From contig OX597823.1 of NCBI GenBank assembly GCA_951406725.2, positions 110,484,001 to 110,548,000 on the forward strand: 64,000 bases of DNA, read 5' to 3'. Both the position numbers and the translations under genes were made by a program. Positions 6,682 through 60,486 of the stretch are shown in pieces (position 1 is the first letter of the stretch; each line of letters starts with the position of its first letter). The DNA is from Octopus vulgaris. Lineage: Eukaryota. Under the pieces are notes generated by a model. That model was not told where the DNA came from and ran no database searches. It was given only the letters and a program-made list of their open reading frames with translations.

Positions 6682-7350
6682 TTAGGTTATTTCACATGAA
6701 ATGACGTATTTGAAAGGTAACAATAAAGCATTTCAGAAGCGATAGAGAACTGATTTATTTAATCAAAATATGATCCATGTTCATTTATGATGTTTCTCTG
6801 TGTCATATATTCCATTTTTAAAAAAATTAATATTTTGCTGTGATAAACTGTCTGAATGCTTCAATTACCTCTCCCCTTTTTAAGAATGTTTTATTGCTTA
6901 TGAAAAGCTCAAAATGCTTAAATAAATGATGATTAGTGGAAGAGGTATCAGGGGAATAGGGAGGGTGTTGCAAAATCTCATAATTCGGGCTTTGCAACTT
7001 ATGGACCGTAGCTTGAGGAGTGTGAGGACGTGCATTGTCGTGGAGCAAAATTGGGCCACCTCTATTCACTACTCTGGGCTGCTTCTTTTTCAAATTCTCA
7101 TGCATACAATCAATTTCATGGCAATACGATGTTGCTGTTACCGTTCTCTTGTTGCAAAAATAAATAATGAATAACTCACTTCGCAGACCACCATACAGTG
7201 ACCCCCTAACTTTTTATGGTGCAATGGAGGGTTTGGGTAGTGTTTAGGTGACTCTCCTGCATCTAATCACTGTTCTGTTCTCCTGCTGTTGTCAAAGAGT
7301 ATCCATTTCTCATGACAAGTAATGATTTGATGCAAAAATGGAGATCATTT
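6682..7350 (-). mobile_element. Mariner transposon 3' portion (transposase pseudogene plus one TIR)
   Basis: ITCHEKWILFDN, VWWSAK, ILLHDNARPH and HPPYSPD motifs. Terminus TA+TTAGGTTATTTCACATGAAATG at 6680. The 5' part is missing. Confidence 0.9.
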
Positions 7351-7369: not shown

Positions 7370-8560
7370 ACCACATACCTCACTGGTTGCTTCTTCTTGA
7401 TTTTTTCCCAAAGGAGTCTCCCTTGTTCTGCAGAAATGGTTTTCAGAAAGGATTTTAAGCACATTCTCCGCTCTAGCCTTCATGCTAGGACTATTTTGAG
7501 ACACAATTGCCTTGTGGAGACCAGGATCTGTATCCCTGTCGGTAGTCTCCACCTTGATAAACTTGTCAATGTCATCAAACTTGACTTTGTGCTCCAGTGC
7601 TATCCAAAGAAGAATATGGGCAGGAAAAAATTGCAGAGTAATCAACCATATAAAGGAAGGCTTGCATCATCCCAAAGATACATTTCTCCAGAAGCTTCAT
7701 AAATCTCTTCAACTTCTTTCCAAACACAGGAGAAATGAGAACAGGATTTGTCTTCTCTGATGATAATCTACCACTCCCCAATTCTACAGCAAGAAGTATA
7801 TCTTGTTCTATGTCCAGTTCATGAATCTTGTGATTATTTAATTGAAACAATTCTCTAAATATTTTAAGAATATCTGGTTTTAGAAAGCTGTAGTTTCTGT
7901 TTTTTTGTTTCAAGCATCCAGTGGTTCTTCACAGGTGTCAGGAAAATAGGCCAGGATATATTTAGCATGGCCTTTTTCTGAGATAAGTTGAGCCAAATGG
8001 AGGAAAATTTAGTATCATACTTTAGAATCCGTGGACTCTAAAGCAGTGATTCCCAAAGTCGGTTGTATTCCCCCCCCCCTTGGGGCGGTGGAAAGCTCTA
8101 AGGGAGCATTGAAGACAAGTGGGGCAATAACAGGGTAGTGATTCATGTAAAAATTGGGACAAAAATGGAGCAGTGAGTCATGTAAAAACAACAAAATAAT
8201 GGGTTTGTTAGATTAAGTTTTACAGTTGCTTTGAATTTGCTTCAGAAAGAGGTCTATGTTTTTGATGGTTAGTTGGAAAGGGGGCACTAGGAATGTGGCC
8301 CGGATGTCAAGGGGGTGGTAGCCCTAAAAAGTTTGGGAACGACTGCTCTAAAGTATAGGTTCTATCTCTCCATAGTCACTTCCATTTAGCTAAATCTTGT
8401 CATGGTGAAACTGCTATTGCAAGTTCAGATGTTGTCAAAGAAATGTTTGCTTAACAGATTGTACCTGATAGAAATTACTTAAGAATGTTGTGGTGGAAGG
8501 CAAAACTGTTAAGAGCTCCAAAATGTGCTTACTGTCACAAAAACACAATCTGGATGTCTT
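7370..8560 (-). mobile_element. Helitron RepHel pseudogene fragment (internally deleted, interrupted by a MITE)
   Basis: SKHFFDNI*TCNSSFTMTRF; NPVLISPVFGKKLKRFMKLLEKCIFG; HUH motif PAHILLW...DDIDKFIKVETTDRDTDPGLH...NSPSM. Confidence 0.8.
8044..8345. mobile_element. hAT-type MITE
   Basis: TIRs CAGTGATTCCCAAA / TTTGGGAACGACTG. Exact 8-bp TSD CTCTAAAG at 8036-8043 and 8346-8353. Confidence 0.9.
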
Positions 8561-10267
8561 TGTTTTGAACACATTTTTTATATTTAAATATATCAAGCAA
8601 ATACCAAAATGGACTGGTGTATTATTGACAATATAAATAAGGGATAACTAACACAACTTTTCCTGATCCCTTGCCCTGCATGACCCAATCTCCTATTCAT
8701 TTCCAGCCTTAGCTGCCATTTTTCTGAGCCCTTCTTTGACTGGTGCAATTCAGTAGCATCCCTTATTAAATAGGCCTGATGTACTAATAGCTTTATCACT
8801 TAGACTCACTCTTTTCATCTCATTCTATAATGAAGACATATTCATGTCTTCATACATTATAACATTCATTTCTATTTTTTTATACATGTTTTATGTCCCA
8901 CATGTTTTGTTTTGCCACTTCCATGTTAGCCCACATGGGGAATATAAAAACAGATCTCATTCTATAATGCTTGAGGACAGCCAATTTCATTGATACCAAT
9001 CTTATTTTCTTCTGCAGGCTTTGTTTACCTTTTCTTTTGGTCAGTATTTTTCTGTGGCATGCAGTTTTCCTCTTCACTATTTTTCAGTTTATCTTGCTCA
9101 CAATTCCAGTCAATTTGTTTTCTAGCATCCCGTCTTTCCACTGTTTTTGGTTCACTGATTCTTTTTGACTTTTTCTTCAGGAGTTCATAGAAGATTTCTC
9201 AGTCAAGAAGCTTGAAACAGAATACATTTTTTTTTCTATGGCAACCTGTTATTGTGTTTTTAAGGTGACAAGAAAGTCTGGTTACAGATAGACACTCATG
9301 TAACTGTTCTATATCATTGCAGAAATCGCAGAAAATTCTTAAATAATTTCACAGATTTTTTGCTTTTCATTTTACTTGTTCAAAATTAAATCAAACTTTG
9401 CACAGACCAAATTTACTTATATATAATATAAAGTCATAGAATTAAAAAAAAATACTCAAGTAAACCATGCAATGATTTATATAAGGAAAACAAAAAAGTA
9501 TCTCACATGATATCGATTTCATTTGAATTCTCAACTTTATAAAAGTATTAAAACATTTGCATAAAATTAGCATCAAACATTAACGTTCAAACAAATCAAT
9601 ATCTTTTTTTACACTATCAATATCAATATATTATTTCTTTATACAAATTTAAAATTTGTTAATCTTCCGGCTCCTATTAAAAAATTTATAATCCACATAA
9701 AATTTTTGCCTCTTTAAAAATATCTGCTCTTAATAGAAATTTATATTCATATAAACATATTTTGAAGCCCTTAAAAAATTTTATGCCCTTACTAAAAACT
9801 AAAACTTTTTCCAACCCCTCAAAATATGTTATACTCCTAAACATTTTATGCATCTCCATAAAAATTTTGTGCCTCCTTGATAATTTTCAGCCCCTCCTAA
9901 AATATTTACATTCACTGTTAATTCAAGATCTACACAGTTAATAAAAAATATTAAATCGTCAGAAAAAAATGTTATCAAGTAGTCTATCAAATTCCACACG
10001 ATAATGTTAAATAATCAAAAGTAAATTTTAAGGCAGACGCAATTTTCTAAGCCTCAATGACGAAGAGAAAGTTTATTTTTTAATTTTTCTTTGAGATGTC
10101 TGTTTATGAGTTTTTGAGTGAACACATACACATGCATGATTTCTAACATGCATAAATATATACTTTATTTACATAGAAACATACATGCATAAGCGCATCT
10201 ATGCCTGCATCTATACGTACATTATGCATGAATTCATACATATATATATACATGCATACATGCACAC

Positions 10268-29995: not shown

Positions 29996-30398
29996 GCAGA
30001 AACGTTAGTACGCCGGACGAAATGCTTAGCGGTATTTCGTCTGCCGTTACGTTTTGAGTTCAATTTCCGCCGAGGTCGACTTTGCCTTTCATCCTTTCAG
30101 GGTCGATAAATAAGTACCAGTTACGCACTGGGGTCGTTGTAATCGACTTAATAACCTATGTCTGTCCTTGTTTGTCCCCTCTATGTTTAGCCCCTTGTGG
30201 GTAATAAAGAAATAGGTATTTCGTCTGCCGTTACATTCTGAATTCAAATTCCGCTGAGGTCGACTTTGCCTTTCATCCTTCCGGGGTCGATAAATTAAGT
30301 ACCAGTTACGCACTGGGGTCGATGTAATCGATTTAATCCGTTTGTCTGTCCTTATTTGTCCCCTCTGTGTCTAGCCCCTTGTGGGCAGTAAAGAAATA
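29996..30398 (+). mobile_element. SINE family B dimer nested in an old family A copy
   Basis: The second unit restarts at GGTATTTCGTCTG (30215). Family A sequence flanks both sides. Confidence 0.8.
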
Positions 30399-30527
30399 GG
30401 TACTTGTTTTCTAAGCATGATGTTTATTATATCGGTCTCTTTCTGCCGAGCTGCTATGTTATGGGTGTTTAAACAAATCAACACCTGTTGTCAAGCAGTG
30501 GTTGGAGATAAACACAAACACACGCAT

Positions 30528-36461: not shown

Positions 36462-37219
36462 GCAGAGAGTGAGGAAGGCGTGAGAGATGTATGAGTGCAC
36501 AAACGAGAAATAAGAATACAACATAGAAACAATGTGAGAATACATATTTTAATAAAATTTTCTTCTTAGGGTCAACGACAGAACAGGACCCACGTCATGA
36601 CCTCGGAACATTCTCTACAAATGATGCATACACACACACACACCTCACATTCATTGAACACAATCAATATGTGTGTGTGCGTGTGTGTTTGTTTCTTTGT
36701 TTATCTCAATGTGGAGAAATACACGGATGCAAATAAAGCATACATATAGATATTCACAATGCTGGTGCATTGACGTTGAGTTCTTTCCTAAGGACTCGCT
36801 TTCCTCGAGCGAAATTTTGAATGTTACATTAAAAGATTTAAAAAATCATCATAAACCACCTTCTTTATGGTTCTTAAGCATATATTTGCCTTCATAAACC
36901 GAAGTGTGTTGAGTCGGGTGGGTACATGATGAGCTTCGTTGTTGACTTGTTCTATCTAGGATTATATATTTCGATCTATATCAATTTACTTGTATAGTGG
37001 TTTCAAAAGCGCATTTTTATAAGGAATCCTATTTGTCAACGTAGGTAATTTTACAGACAGATATTAAGAAATCGTTTTGGGGTATAATATATTTGATAAT
37101 TGTGGAAAATCTTAGATAATAATTGTTACGTTTCGATAATGGAAAGCTATTGTGTCATCGTTTGATTATTTCTGGAAAGTCAGATATAAGTGGGTGAGAC
37201 ATTGCCATGGTAAGCTGTT

Positions 37220-37535
37220 GGAAATATATATAGGTTTAAAATGTCTTAAAGCTTTGAAGATCTTATGTTCGCAAAAAGAGACTAATTCGTAGTTACCATT
37301 CGGTATATGGCTCCTTAATAAGAGTATATGATAGGTTTCATCGGTAGAGAGGTGACAGAGATCGTTGTTTCTTTGGTATGGTGGTGCGGAAGACAAAACT
37401 TTCCAATTAATGTCAAAATGTGTTGTTGTGAACATGATCGTCCATATGAGTTTAGATAGTGAAGTATTATTTTTCCTGTATCGGTTGTGAAAAGTATGCG
37501 TGTTAGTTATATCGTGGTTTGAACTGGATTGCCTT
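37220..37535 (-). mobile_element. Penelope-like element GIY-YIG endonuclease C-terminal remnant
   Basis: QFKPRYN*H / TFHNRYRKNNTSLSKLIW and FDINWKVLSSAPPY...CHLSTDETYHIL...N...ELVSFCEHK match the PLE endonuclease tail pattern (CxLCxxE...LN...S.C.H). Confidence 0.75.
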
Positions 37536-37584
37536 TCACCATTTTGGTGTTTTAGTGTTCGTGGTTACAGTGGCGCTATAAACG

Positions 37585-42540: not shown

Positions 42541-42963
42541 TCTTGCTCTTTACTCTTTTACTTGTTTCAGTCATTTGACTGCGGCCATGCTGGAGCACCG
42601 CCTTTAGCCGAGCAAATCGACCCCGGGACTTATTCTTTGTAAGCCCAGTACTTATTCTATCGGTCTCTTTTGCCGAACCGCTAAGTAACGGGGACGTAAA
42701 CACACCAGCATCGGTTGTCAAGCAATGCTAGGGGGACAAAGACAGACACACAAACACATACACGCACACACACACACATATATATATATATACATATATA
42801 CGACAGGCTTCTTTCAGTTTCCGTCTACCAAATCCACTCACAAGGCTTTGGTCGGCCCGGGGCTATAGCGGAAGACACTTGCCCAAGATGCCACGCAGTG
42901 GGACTGAACCCGGAACCATGTGGCTGGTTAGCAAGCTACTTACCACACAGCCACTCCTGCGCC
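42541..42963 (-). mobile_element. SINE family A
   Basis: Young full-length copy. Confidence 0.9.
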
Positions 42964-44450: not shown

Positions 44451-45676
44451 TCTCCAACCATACATTTATGCACCAATACACGGAGCAAGGAAATACAAGA
44501 GGCTGAGGTATGTCTAGTCGTCAGTTTTGTATCGTAATATTGGTGAATAATTAGAGCAGAGGAATCAAAAAGTGACAGGTAATCAAAGGGGCGTGTAAAT
44601 GGAATTACATGTCCAAATAACCTCTCAAAACCACAAAAGCTATGCTGGAAGTGTGTCCATTAGAATGTGCCAGAAGACAGAGCAGAGATTAACGATGCAG
44701 AACAAAAATTCTAGTTGCTTCGTCTTAGTAAAAGCATTTCAGAGCTGAACACTTTGACGAACTCGCAAAAGGAAAAGAGTTGGTGGATTAGGGGAGAAAG
44801 AAAGAGAGAAAGGAAAATAACGATCACCTTCTGGAACAACACAATGCTATTAGCCCCAAGTACCAGAACAACATCAGCTAAAACTCTGGTGATAACTAAA
44901 GGAATTTCTTTATGCGTTGTATTAGGAATATATAAGCAAACAACTCGTTTTCTGACAACAGTGGCAACCAGTTGTACCATTCCATCATCATACAACGAAG
45001 AAGAAATAATAGTTTCTGATGAAAATCTAAAAATTGAAAGCATGAAAGGAGAAAGTAGCAATTTCGAAAGAGAAGACTCAGAATAAAACAAAGCAAAATG
45101 GTTCGGAGGAGCAATTTTTTCAAAGAACAACGGTAACCTCGGCAAGAAAATAACAATGAAAATTATGAAGATAAAGAGCTAAGATTGACTGTCCTTTGAA
45201 AATCAAACAATCAATAAATAAATTATCTTTGTGTGATGACAGGGATTCAGTGAACAAGCTAGAATGAAACAAAAACTGTTTGATTCAGAGGTATAAAAAT
45301 ATACTCGTATCTTTCAATAGCAAATGTTCTCCAAAATGCCTATTGGTGCATTTGGTTACACTCATAAAAAATTGTGTTAGTCATTAGTTAAACATGGAGT
45401 ACCAAAACCCAACTTGAAATCTTACATACTCTTTTACACTTTTACTTGTTTCAGTCATTTGACTGTGGCCATGTTGGAGCAACACGTTTAGTCGAGCAGA
45501 TCGACCCCAGGACTTATTCTTGTAAGCCTAGTACTTATTCTATCGGTCTCTTTTGCTGAACCACTAAGTTACGGGGACGTAAACACACCAGCATCGGTTG
45601 TCAAGTGATGTTGGGGGAACAAACACAGACACAGAAACATACACACACGCACACACACACACACACACATATATAT

Positions 45677-46405
45677 ATACTAATATTAAGGGATCAGCAA
45701 AAGAAATGCACCACCACATACCGAAGTTCAGAAATAGCAGCCAAAATCTAAGCCATTTCTTCTACTTAAAAAAAGGTCTACTAGAGAAACCATAATACTT
45801 GAATCCTATTCATCCAGGCAGAGGATAACGTAACGAAAATCAATCAATATCCGATTATCCATAGACGCGCGTTTCGGAATTAGGTTTTAAATAAAGAATA
45901 TCCAAAAATATAAACTTTACTAACCACATTCCTCTTCAGTATGGATTTTCTGCAATGATCCGAAGGTACTAAAACATTAGAACGATTCCTTCAATGTAAC
46001 GGCCGCTAATGGTAGTACCGCCAGATTCAAAACATGAATGAAAGTCGCTTAGCCTCCTCTGCCTTTCCACGTTGATATTTTTGGATATTCTTTATTTAAA
46101 ACCTAATTCCGAAACGCGCGTCTATGGATAATCGGATGTTGATTGATTTTCGTTACGTTACCCTCTGCCTGGATGAATATGATTCAAGTATTATGGTTTC
46201 TCTAGTAGACCTTTTTTTAAGTAGAAGAAATGGCTTAGATTTTGGCTGCTATTTCTGAACTTCGGTATGTGGTGATGCATTTCTTTTGCTGATCCCTTAA
46301 TATTAGTATTACTAGAATTTACCGTATAACGGTCCTGTTTTCATACCGAATTCTACTTGGTGAAATTTATTGATTACTTCGTAATTAATTAGTTTTACCC
46401 TTAAT

Positions 46406-46410
<5 letters not shown>
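45677..46410. mobile_element. Penelope-like inverted pLTR insert: 235-bp inverted repeat (45677-45911 / 46075-46309) with ~100-bp right extension
   Basis: The arms differ at about 4 positions by eye. (TA)n lies on both flanks. Contains a hammerhead motif. Confidence 0.8.
45857..45946 (-). ncRNA. Type I hammerhead ribozyme, canonical core
   Basis: Minus strand: ATCCATA-CTGAAGA-GGAAT-[loop]-ATTCC-GAAAC-GCGC-GTC-TATGGAT. Perfect 7-bp stem I, 5-bp stem II, palindromic stem III ACGCGCGT, GUC triplet. Confidence 0.88.
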
Positions 46411-46450
<40 letters not shown>

Positions 46451-47276
46451 TGTATGTATACATATATACAACAGGCTTCTTTCAGTTTCTGTCTACCAAA
46501 TCCACTCACAAGGCTTTGGTCGGCCCAAGGCTATAGTAGAAGACACTTGCCCAAGATGCCACGCAGTGGGACTGAACCCGGAACCATGTGGTTGGTAAGC
46601 AAACTACTTATCACACAGCCACTACTACGCCTAAAAATTTTAACATTTATTTCCTTTTAACTATATCTTCTTTTAATTATTGTTTGAATTATCATTGTTT
46701 TTTTTATAATTATCTATCCAAATACGGGTTTTAAAATCTTAAAACATCCATTTCTTATATACCATATTTGTTAACTTGTCTTTGCACTCCACTTTGTTTT
46801 GTACTCCTGGTTGAATATTTCATGTTTTTGTATTTCTTCGACCCCTTGCAGCTAGTAAAATTGGAGGCAATTAGAAATGGCCTTACTGAAAACGTGTTTG
46901 TCGTAAGAATAGCCTTCAGCCATCTCTTCGTTACAAAACACAAAGACTGCATTGTCAATGATAGAGTTTGTGTGCTAAATCAAGGAGAAATGAAAACTGT
47001 TTAATGGGTTTGGATCGTGGCAGTGTGGTGTAGCAACAAAGCCACAATTCAATCTTTGCAAGATCAGGATGAATGTGTGCTACAAGGTTCCAAGCAAATT
47101 TGTGTGGCTTCTCAGCAGCCCTTTGCTCTATTCTTCCATATAGATACGGATGCGCAAAAAAAATTCTGCAGTCATAGCTGAAATTCATTTTATAAAAGAC
47201 CTGCAAAACCAGTCTAGACCTAGGGCTAGATGAAAGCAGCAACAAAATGGCAGTAATGGTATGTTTAGAAGCTATA

Positions 47277-47912
47277 AGGCGGCGAGCTGGCAGAATCATT
47301 AGCACGGTGGACGACATGCTTAGCAGTACTTCGTCTGCCACTATGTTCTGAGTTCAAATTCCACCGAGGTCGACTTTGCCTTTCATCCTTTCGGGGTCTA
47401 TTAAATGAGTACCAGTTACGCACTGGAGTTGATGTAATCGACTTAATCTGTTTGTCTGTCCTTGTTTGTCCCCTCTGTGCTTAGCCCCTTGAGGGTAGTA
47501 AAGAAATAGCAGCTATGCAAATGACTGAAACAGGTGCAAGAGTGACTGTGTGGCAAGTAGCTTGCTTACCAACCACATGGTTTTGGGTTCAGTCCCACTG
47601 CGTGGCACCTTGGGCGAGTGTCTTTTACTATAGCCTCGGGCCGACCAAAGCCTTGTGAGTGGATTTGGTAGACGGAAATATATATATATATATGTATGTG
47701 TGTGTATATGTTTCTTTGTCTGTGTTTGTTCCCCTAACATCGCTTGACAACCGATGCTGGTGTGTTTACGTCCCCGTAACTTAGTGGTTCGGCAAAAAGA
47801 GACCGATAGAATAAGTACTAGGCTTACAATGAATAAGTCCTGGGGTCGATTGGCTTGACTAAAGGCGGTGCTCCAGCATGGCCGCAGTCAAATTACTAAA
47901 ACAAATAAAATA
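47277..47912 (+). mobile_element. SINE family B (47277-47508) followed by SINE family A (47532-47912)
   Basis: Both family bodies are visible. Confidence 0.85.
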
Positions 47913-59879: not shown

Positions 59880-60486
59880 GGGAGCTGGCAGAATCGTTAG
59901 CACACCGGGTGAAATGCTTAATGGTATTTTGTCTGCTGTTACGTTCTGAGGTTCTGAGTTCAAATTCCGCCGAGGTCGACTTTACCTTTCAGCCTTCTGG
60001 GGTCGATTAAATAAGTACCAGTTTCTGGGGTCGATATAATCAACTTAATCCATTTGTCTGTCCTTGTTTGTTCCCTCTATGTATTTAGGCCTTTGTGGGT
60101 AGTAAAGAAATAGGTATTTTGTCTGCTGTTACGTTCTGAGGTTCTGAGTTCAAATTCCGCCGAGGTCGACTTTACCTTTCAGCCTTCTGGGGTCGATTAA
60201 ATAAGTACCAGTTACTGGGGTCGATATAATCAACTTAATCCATTTGTCTGTCCTTGTTTGTTCCCTCTATGTATTTAGGCCCTTGTGGGTAGTAAAGAAA
60301 TAGGTATTTCGTCTGCTGTTACGTTCTGAGGTTCTGAGTTCAAATTCCGCCGAGGTCGACTTTGCCTTTCATCCTTTCAGGGTCAATTAAATAAGTACCA
60401 GTTACGCTCTGGGGTCAATGTAATTGACTTAATCTCTTTGTCCTTGCTTGTACCCTCTGTTTATCCCCCTGTGGGCAAGAAAGAAA
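59880..60486 (+). mobile_element. SINE family B tandem trimer
   Basis: One head followed by units restarting at GGTATTT (60113 and 60303). Confidence 0.85.

Follow-up and report, generated by a model that had tools for sequence, protein, structure and literature searches.

A probable truncated Penelope-like retroelement insertion with two copies of a hammerhead-bearing 3' end in a SINE microsatellite

We identified, in a 64,000-nucleotide stretch of DNA (the window), an insert of 732 bases that has two mirror-image arms and one complete hammerhead motif. The insert is best explained (probability about 0.8) as a truncated Penelope-like element (PLE), dead and stump-sized: two shortened copies of its hammerhead-bearing 3' end face each other head to head within the (TA)n run of a SINE. 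It is the anatomy (inverted partner, one-sided tail, TA target and hammerhead) that points to PLE membership, as the insert contains no reverse transcriptase or GIY-YIG ORF. Overall, the insertion is probably of an ordinary kind, and its hammerhead is mildly unusual and probably silent at this locus. Two traits are off the norm: a structured loop II of 47 nt and a tail of 99 nt.

Results

Anatomy of the insert and its target

The left arm (45677..45915, minus strand) is the 3' part of an inverted copy, and its tail-less end overlaps the TA run by 3 nt. The right arm (46071..46309, plus strand) is a 5'-truncated sense copy whose first base falls inside loop II of the hammerhead. Between them lies a spacer of 155 nt (45916..46070, minus strand), the natural upstream part of the element, which is confined to the inverted copy and holds the 5' half of the hammerhead. 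The right arm is followed by a one-sided extension, or tail (46310..46408, plus strand), which is the element's own sequence and is covered in all four sequencing runs compared below. Read in element sense, spacer (155), arm (239) and extension (99) make a unit of 493 nt, and the insert consists of inverted spacer plus arm, then arm plus extension, head to head. Thus, an inverted 5'-truncated partner copy (an inverted pLTR) is present, and the hammerhead lies within the terminal repeat.

An inverted-repeat search of the window gave arms of 239 nt each with 98% complementarity. The original prediction had described about four differences between the arms, a right arm about 100 bp longer and (TA)n next to both ends. 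We counted four mismatches in the 235-nt arm core (45848/46138, 45825/46161, 45806/46180 and 45711/46275), with a fifth (45912/46074) adjoining the junction; the extension measures 99 nt, and (TA)n abuts the insert on both sides. One shared 8-mer precedes both termini, at 46294 and 46398. The inversion junction is without a palindrome, and six-frame translation of the insert gave no long frame. The insert thus gives no view of the parent's reverse transcriptase and endonuclease, and a non-autonomous family is conceivable.

Among the arm differences at 46138, 46180 and 46275 and their mirror sites, two are A versus G in element sense. At the third, 46180, one arm reads T and the other G, in contrast to the A of family contigs. 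These sites are too few for a claim of A-to-I editing of the template RNA.

The insert interrupts a SINE on the minus strand. Alignment to uninterrupted copies in the window places the SINE 3' half, with its internal (CA)n(TA)n, at 45440..45676, and the 5' half, which has a (TA)n run (46409-46447) and a Pol III-like head, at 46409..46632. When the halves are joined, they align to intact copies near 42556-42963 and 47541-47910; a further 15 matches per half are present in the window, at 72-94% overall and 72-92% for the 3' half. Insertion into the microsatellite of a SINE had been proposed, and the halves are indeed collinear across the insert, with the site in the internal (CA)n(TA)n. Because the insert sits in this microsatellite, a target-site duplication is unreadable. 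We take the SINE head to contain A and B boxes, and the SINE presumably belongs to an octopus family. A run of four T residues (46101-46098), of the kind at which Pol III terminates, lies ahead of the hammerhead on the path of the SINE's transcript.

The hammerhead motif

A complete type I hammerhead, with stem I, core, stem II, a 2-bp stem III and a palindromic tetraloop, occupies 45857..45946 of the minus strand. Stem I pairs 45946-45940 with 45863-45857 (7 Watson-Crick pairs) and is followed by the core stretch CUGAAGA (45939-45933); stem II pairs 45932-45928 with 45880-45876 (5 bp) and is followed by GAA. The stem III region is the self-complementary ACGCGCGU, an 8-nt palindrome that gives a 2-bp helix III and tetraloop. 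The conserved core (C3-A9, G12-A14, A15.1-U16.1 and H17) is present throughout, and the three helices, with helix I open-ended, have type I topology. C17 is at 45864, and cleavage is predicted between 45864 and 45863. Motif and stem lengths agree base for base with the original prediction, as does the position of C17 with the predicted cut. The half-motif predicted on the plus strand is also present (46106..46129; stem II 3' strand, GAA, palindrome, cut site and stem I 3' strand), and the right arm begins inside loop II, where the inversion breakpoint had been placed.

Loop II (45881..45927, minus strand), which includes the cut-off point of the right copy, had been described as a long loop. 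The length stands at 47 nt, but a plain loop is not what folding predicts: 14 additional pairs form a long irregular helix that prolongs stem II. Nor does the term minimal, in the sense of PMC4209133, suit a motif with a 2-bp helix III and tetraloop and with no additional base separating position 9 from 10.1.

The complete motif is the single match in the window. In 60 block-wise dinucleotide shuffles of the window, we found eight matches with stem I of at least 5 and stem II of at least 2 bp, and none with stem I of at least 7 and stem II of at least 5 bp, which places the motif beyond chance. A relaxed scan that tolerated one core mismatch added two weak motifs (4841, plus strand, and 9962, minus strand), each core-defective. 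An Infernal search had been proposed as a check, and it did not recover the motif: no hammerhead is among the six Rfam rows for 45690-46400 at E<=10, or among the 150 of 189 rows listed for the whole window, where matches are microsatellite-driven miRNA. This miss is likely due to the 47-nt loop II.

An ATG is located at the end of stem II, and its frame closes after 24 codons. An ORF start within stem II, as in the anole element, was rejected for this reason.

Copies of the family in sequencing runs

Part of the stretch is contained in 20 of the 24 listed runs, with three organisms represented and no RNA run listed among them. We compared four runs (X2, X3, X5 and X11) by contigs with 45916-46414, which includes each element part once; the listing comprises 32 of 1126 contig pieces and 24 of 137 loose ends. 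In every one of the four runs, each of the 30 bins has coverage. The joint between 45916 and 46071 (opposite strands) occurs in each of the four and is the sole joint among those listed; thus, the natural order is spacer then arm, across the hammerhead. One X5 contig reaches 69 letters past 46072 into sequence unlike the window. We infer that the parent continues upstream and that, at the inversion point, about 2 nt are shared by the two truncated copies. With the 493 nt here and the 69 further upstream in this one contig, the unit measures at least about 560 nt. X5 is RNA by guess only and is not expression evidence, and contigs cannot reveal RNA ends. Several 1-nt indels were found among family contigs in the region, which is thus non-coding.

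Summed contig depth, which is not copy number and in which subfamily divergence could produce part of any gradient, rises in X2 from about 70-190 over the far spacer (45984-46068) to about 900 over the motif 5' half, 8,000-9,500 over the motif 3' half and more than 100,000 at 46239-46272 and 46341-46374. The other three runs show the same trend toward the 3' end, and in all four the motif 3' half is about 2- to more than 10-fold deeper than the 5' half. No step in depth occurs at the cut site at this coarse resolution, as bins 46103-46119 and 46120-46136 are alike in all four runs. Among the listed loose ends, those at 46402 enter (TA)n in two runs, X2 and X11. A single contig of X11 departs at 46309, the left-arm terminus, a weak observation. 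The runs show a large, dispersed family of 5'-truncated copies with a microsatellite target bias, for which contig depth is a rough guide.

Depth also drops at 45984-45983, upstream of stem I by about 37 nt (825 to 104 in X2, 119 to 35 in X3, 400 to 114 in X11 and only weakly in X5); a second drop, at 46086-46103, falls inside loop II. These drops could be truncation hotspots or subfamily borders. The highest depth blocks in all four runs (46239-46289 and 46341-46391) each lie directly upstream of one terminus, and folding pairs the first of them partly with the tail. They are candidates for protein-binding and start signals common to many subfamilies.

Of the 38 variant sites listed, none is in the 43 core and stem bases, versus 28 in 235 flanking bases (Fisher p 0.007; this value depends on five unlisted variant rows and would be 0.04 if one of them, or 0.12 if two, were in the core). 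Loop II has one variant site in its 47 bases, and the first variable base, 46130, is immediately past stem I. The hammerhead 5' half is at the margin of the compared stretch, and no compensatory change in the stems was seen among the 38 listed sites. The comparison gives moderate support to putative selection on the motif.

Folding and predicted activity

The folding results are for equilibrium, with co-transcriptional kinetics left out. As a monomer, the motif has its open-core fold 1.6 kcal/mol above the minimum, at about 1% of the ensemble. Use as a dimer had been suggested, and in cofolding two copies do pair through the palindromic stem III (-55.1 versus -40.2 kcal/mol). Cofolding of the full copy with the 24-nt half gives -38.1 kcal/mol versus -21.6 for separate strands, and the minimum has the topology of a trans active core, with four further pairs on the freed strand (the bare core alone, -34.9). 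Because cofolding favours both complexes, the dimer and trans ideas are structurally sound.

Read-through RNA of either strand is predicted to form one long hairpin of 235 bp, and imposing stems I and II on it costs 72 kcal/mol (-455.8 versus -383.4). For minus-strand RNA the probability of stems I and II is 0.0 for starts from 46408 to 46110 and below 0.01 at 46100; starts at 46090 or nearer give 0.77-0.94 for stem I and 0.99 for stem II. At the locus, the motif would fold only in RNA that starts at most about 145 nt upstream. The plus-strand half-motif is wholly paired for starts at 45677 and 45850. The arms are thus predicted to switch the hammerhead off in read-through RNA of the locus and, given the hairpin and stem probabilities of 0.0, activity there is unlikely unless RNA starts from an internal promoter. 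If the locus yields any RNA product, a 235-bp double strand is the more likely one.

These results qualify two claims of the original prediction. The motif is the best candidate ribozyme in the window, in that it is the sole complete one, but the hairpin argues against likely activity at the locus. Similarly, the half-motif forms the proposed complex as a trans substrate in cofolding, but it is paired in read-through RNA, and the locus is a poor predicted source of such substrate.

The hammerhead probably cuts the RNA of the parent element either as a dimer paired via the 8-nt palindrome or with the element's protein assisting. Dimer models are standard for palindromic stem III (PMC3088659), and axolotl retrozyme motifs with a similar 2-bp helix III are described as cleaving better as dimers (PMC7229834). 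The metazoan PLE hammerheads reported in PMC4209133 cleave weakly in vitro, and in the account given in PMC11167929 the anole element hammerhead is protein-dependent and leaves no RNA ends at its site.

Other features of the window

A 132-aa frame at 37166-37564 (minus strand) resembles, by eye, the C-terminal end of the GIY-YIG domain of Hydra-clade PLEs. Its first Atlas match (0.94) is a cluster of GIY-YIG fragments, and Pfam gave no match. Behind it, 37170-37110 has the look, by eye, of a decayed hammerhead. The region looks like a second PLE remnant, unrelated to the insert. We also identified a remnant of a mariner-type DDE transposase at 6827-7213 (minus strand; Pfam PF01359, E 0.0007, under the curated cut-off). 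A GC-richer segment at 22973-23841 (plus strand) has two frames, one with a CxxC-H zinc-knuckle-like motif (by eye) and neither with a Pfam match; it is perhaps the remnant of a retroelement ORF1. Tandem units of 184-190 bp are present at 30031-30402 and 59923-60405, with a single copy near 47280-47510 (by eye), and look like a second SINE-like family.

Discussion

Relationship to known elements

PLE insertions are described as having an inverted 5'-truncated copy, a tail and a (TA)n bias (PMC8557442), or an inverted pLTR and an optional 31-bp tail, most commonly arranged head to head (PMC3846280). PMC4209133 also documents hammerheads that occur in pairs, 100-700 bp apart on opposite strands, as well as variants whose helix III is small and palindromic. 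The insert shares with endonuclease-bearing PLE insertions (PMC3846280; PMC8557442; PMC11167929) the head-to-head, inverted 5'-truncated partner, a tail at one end, a (TA)n target without a readable target-site duplication, a hammerhead near the 3' end and heavy 5' truncation. It differs in that it is ORF-less, has a tail of 99 nt versus the usual 30-40, and lacks a junction palindrome. Anatomy, the depth gradient of the family and the TA target agree with the Penelope-like insertion first proposed.

Like the PLE hammerheads of Aedes, Drosophila willistoni and Saccoglossus (PMC4209133 Fig. S3), the motif is type I, with CUGANGA and GAAA, a G10.1-C11.1 pair and a palindromic helix III capable of dimerising. 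Unlike them, it is without the extra base at 9/10.1 and has a longer stem I (7 bp), and its 47-nt loop II compares with 3-9 nt in the rows of that figure (by eye). Loops of about 30-35 nt occur in two spike-moss PLE-X elements (PMC8557442 File S2).

PMC8557442 File S2 already includes an octopus PLE hammerhead, that of Hydra-1_Obim. This element and the octopus Naiads of the PMC8557442 supplement are PLEs that share the (TA)n preference of the insert and probably its host group. All stems of the Hydra-1_Obim hammerhead differ from those of the insert. Hydra-clade hammerheads in File S2 lie about 100-200 nt from the 3' end and have a 3-4-bp helix III and a short loop II (by eye), whereas the insert has a 2-bp helix III and a 47-nt loop II, with the motif 180 or 279 nt before the termini. 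Hydra-1_Obim and three octopus Naiads were rejected as parent by eye, as the stems and the Naiad 3' ends given there are unlike the insert, and by motif search. The PMC8557442 supplement lacks three insert motifs of 11-12 nt; three 10-nt motifs were also sought there, with no match for one and a single match in unrelated coding sequence for each of the other two.

None of the listed papers on octopus and hammerhead ribozymes concerns this family by title or abstract, and the family may already be catalogued in Repbase or Dfam, which were outside the search. One octopus genome has 336 recent PLE insertions in 31 families (PMC13282606), in a report whose main text does not mention ribozymes. A core-plus-stem-II pattern matched 13 metagenome loci and a core-plus-palindrome pattern two viral loci, none of which (0/15) closes as a type I hammerhead. 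The 13 metagenome loci also lack DNA similarity to the insert (best E 0.12), and all 15 are treated as chance matches on these grounds.

Proposed origin and age

By analogy with the anole element as described in PMC11167929, the element's GIY-YIG endonuclease would nick both strands of the TA run. One free end would prime reverse transcription on the element RNA at the far start (about 46402-46408), and the other would prime 99 nt inside, at 46309. Both cDNAs would stop early (394 and 338 nt), and the truncated ends would be joined with an overlap of about 2 nt. The hammerhead would then be cargo inherited from the parent element. In purified form, the anole element both cuts and extends the two strands of AT-rich DNA, with two reverse transcription start sites separated by the length of the tail (PMC11167929). 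The 8-mer shared by both termini fits a repeated start signal. Self-priming on an antisense template, the other route offered in PMC3846280, relies on junction palindromes, which this copy is without. The literature found on twin priming concerns L1 only.

The inverted repeat had been called young, which is loosely true: the arm differences correspond to about 2.4 My, with a 95% range of 0.6-6, provided that the octopus clock given in PMC13282606 applies and the arm templates were identical.

Alternative explanations

A tentative but real possibility is that the family is non-autonomous and ORF-less (retrozyme-like, or a parasite of PLEs), mobilised by a PLE, with this copy as its inverted fragment. 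Such a family fits alongside the PLE insertion mechanism, and would agree with the missing ORF and with the 1-nt indels of the non-coding family contigs. Retrozymes have been proposed as PLE derivatives in the cited part of 10.64898/2026.07.22.740005, and the insert shares with the metazoan non-LTR retrozymes described in PMC7229834 a type I motif, a canonical-looking 2-bp helix III with tetraloop, and AT-rich, non-coding sequence. However, it differs from these in being inverted and not tandem, in having a unit above 450 bp and in showing no evident contacts between loops I and II. The window has no tandem unit and no tail-to-head joint is listed in the four runs; retrozyme units measure 150-450 bp, less than the at least about 560 nt of this unit, and copies of the family terminate in (TA)n. 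Identity as a tandem retrozyme was rejected, as tandem monomers of 150-450 bp were found neither in the window nor among the listed joints of the four runs. It is unlikely that the same insertion has a live hammerhead, with a promoter in the spacer giving minus-strand RNA that cuts as a dimer, or cuts half-motifs in trans. The high stem probabilities for starts at 46090 or nearer and the active topology of the full-plus-half complex are what such a reading would predict; rotifer pLTRs carry putative bidirectional promoter motifs (PMC3846280), and the greater depth of the motif 3' half in the four runs also agrees. Here, though, the promoter is hypothetical, and a Pol III transcript from the SINE would meet the T4 run before the motif. 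The poor in vitro cutting and the protein dependence reported for PLE hammerheads (PMC4209133; PMC11167929) point the same way.

Long inverted arms and TA at both ends would also suit a DNA transposon of the foldback or MITE type that had terminal inverted repeats of 239 bp and inserted at TA. This is highly improbable, since 99 nt of the element lie outside the right arm, the hammerhead straddles the border of arm and spacer, depth along the element forms a steep gradient, and the contig upstream of the spacer enters other sequence rather than a second arm. We give equally little credence to a sequencing or assembly fold-back that made an inverted duplication out of one PLE fragment. Support for the copy-specific junction 46070/46071 comes from the window alone: among the 32 contig pieces listed (of 1126), not one spans it, as a fold-back would have it; the arms nevertheless have four differences in their core, the SINE halves are collinear across the insert, the left-arm end matches the departure of one other contig (46309), and the anatomy matches that published. 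A truncated PLE insertion thus remains the preferred reading.

Significance

PLE-repeat hammerheads, inverted truncated partners, TA targeting and one octopus PLE hammerhead have already been published; the modest value of this insertion is that it offers a clean case of fairly recent date that shows two variant traits. A 47-nt loop II escapes Rfam and the 7-17-nt core spacing stated in PMC8557442, which suggests that such motifs are undercounted. The long tail, with one 8-mer before both termini, allows the two-start-site model to be tested in a new family. In its most far-reaching form, the family would be a genome-wide trans-cleaving network based on an undescribed long-stem-II hammerhead overlooked by standard descriptors, in which most copies break within this stem and seed the genome with half-hammerheads, perfect trans substrates of the few full copies, element RNA could cut any host transcript bearing a half-motif, and reverse transcription starts 99 nt apart; we regard this as very doubtful. 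If trans cleavage of half-motifs in cells were true, PLE hammerheads would gain a function beyond their own RNA.
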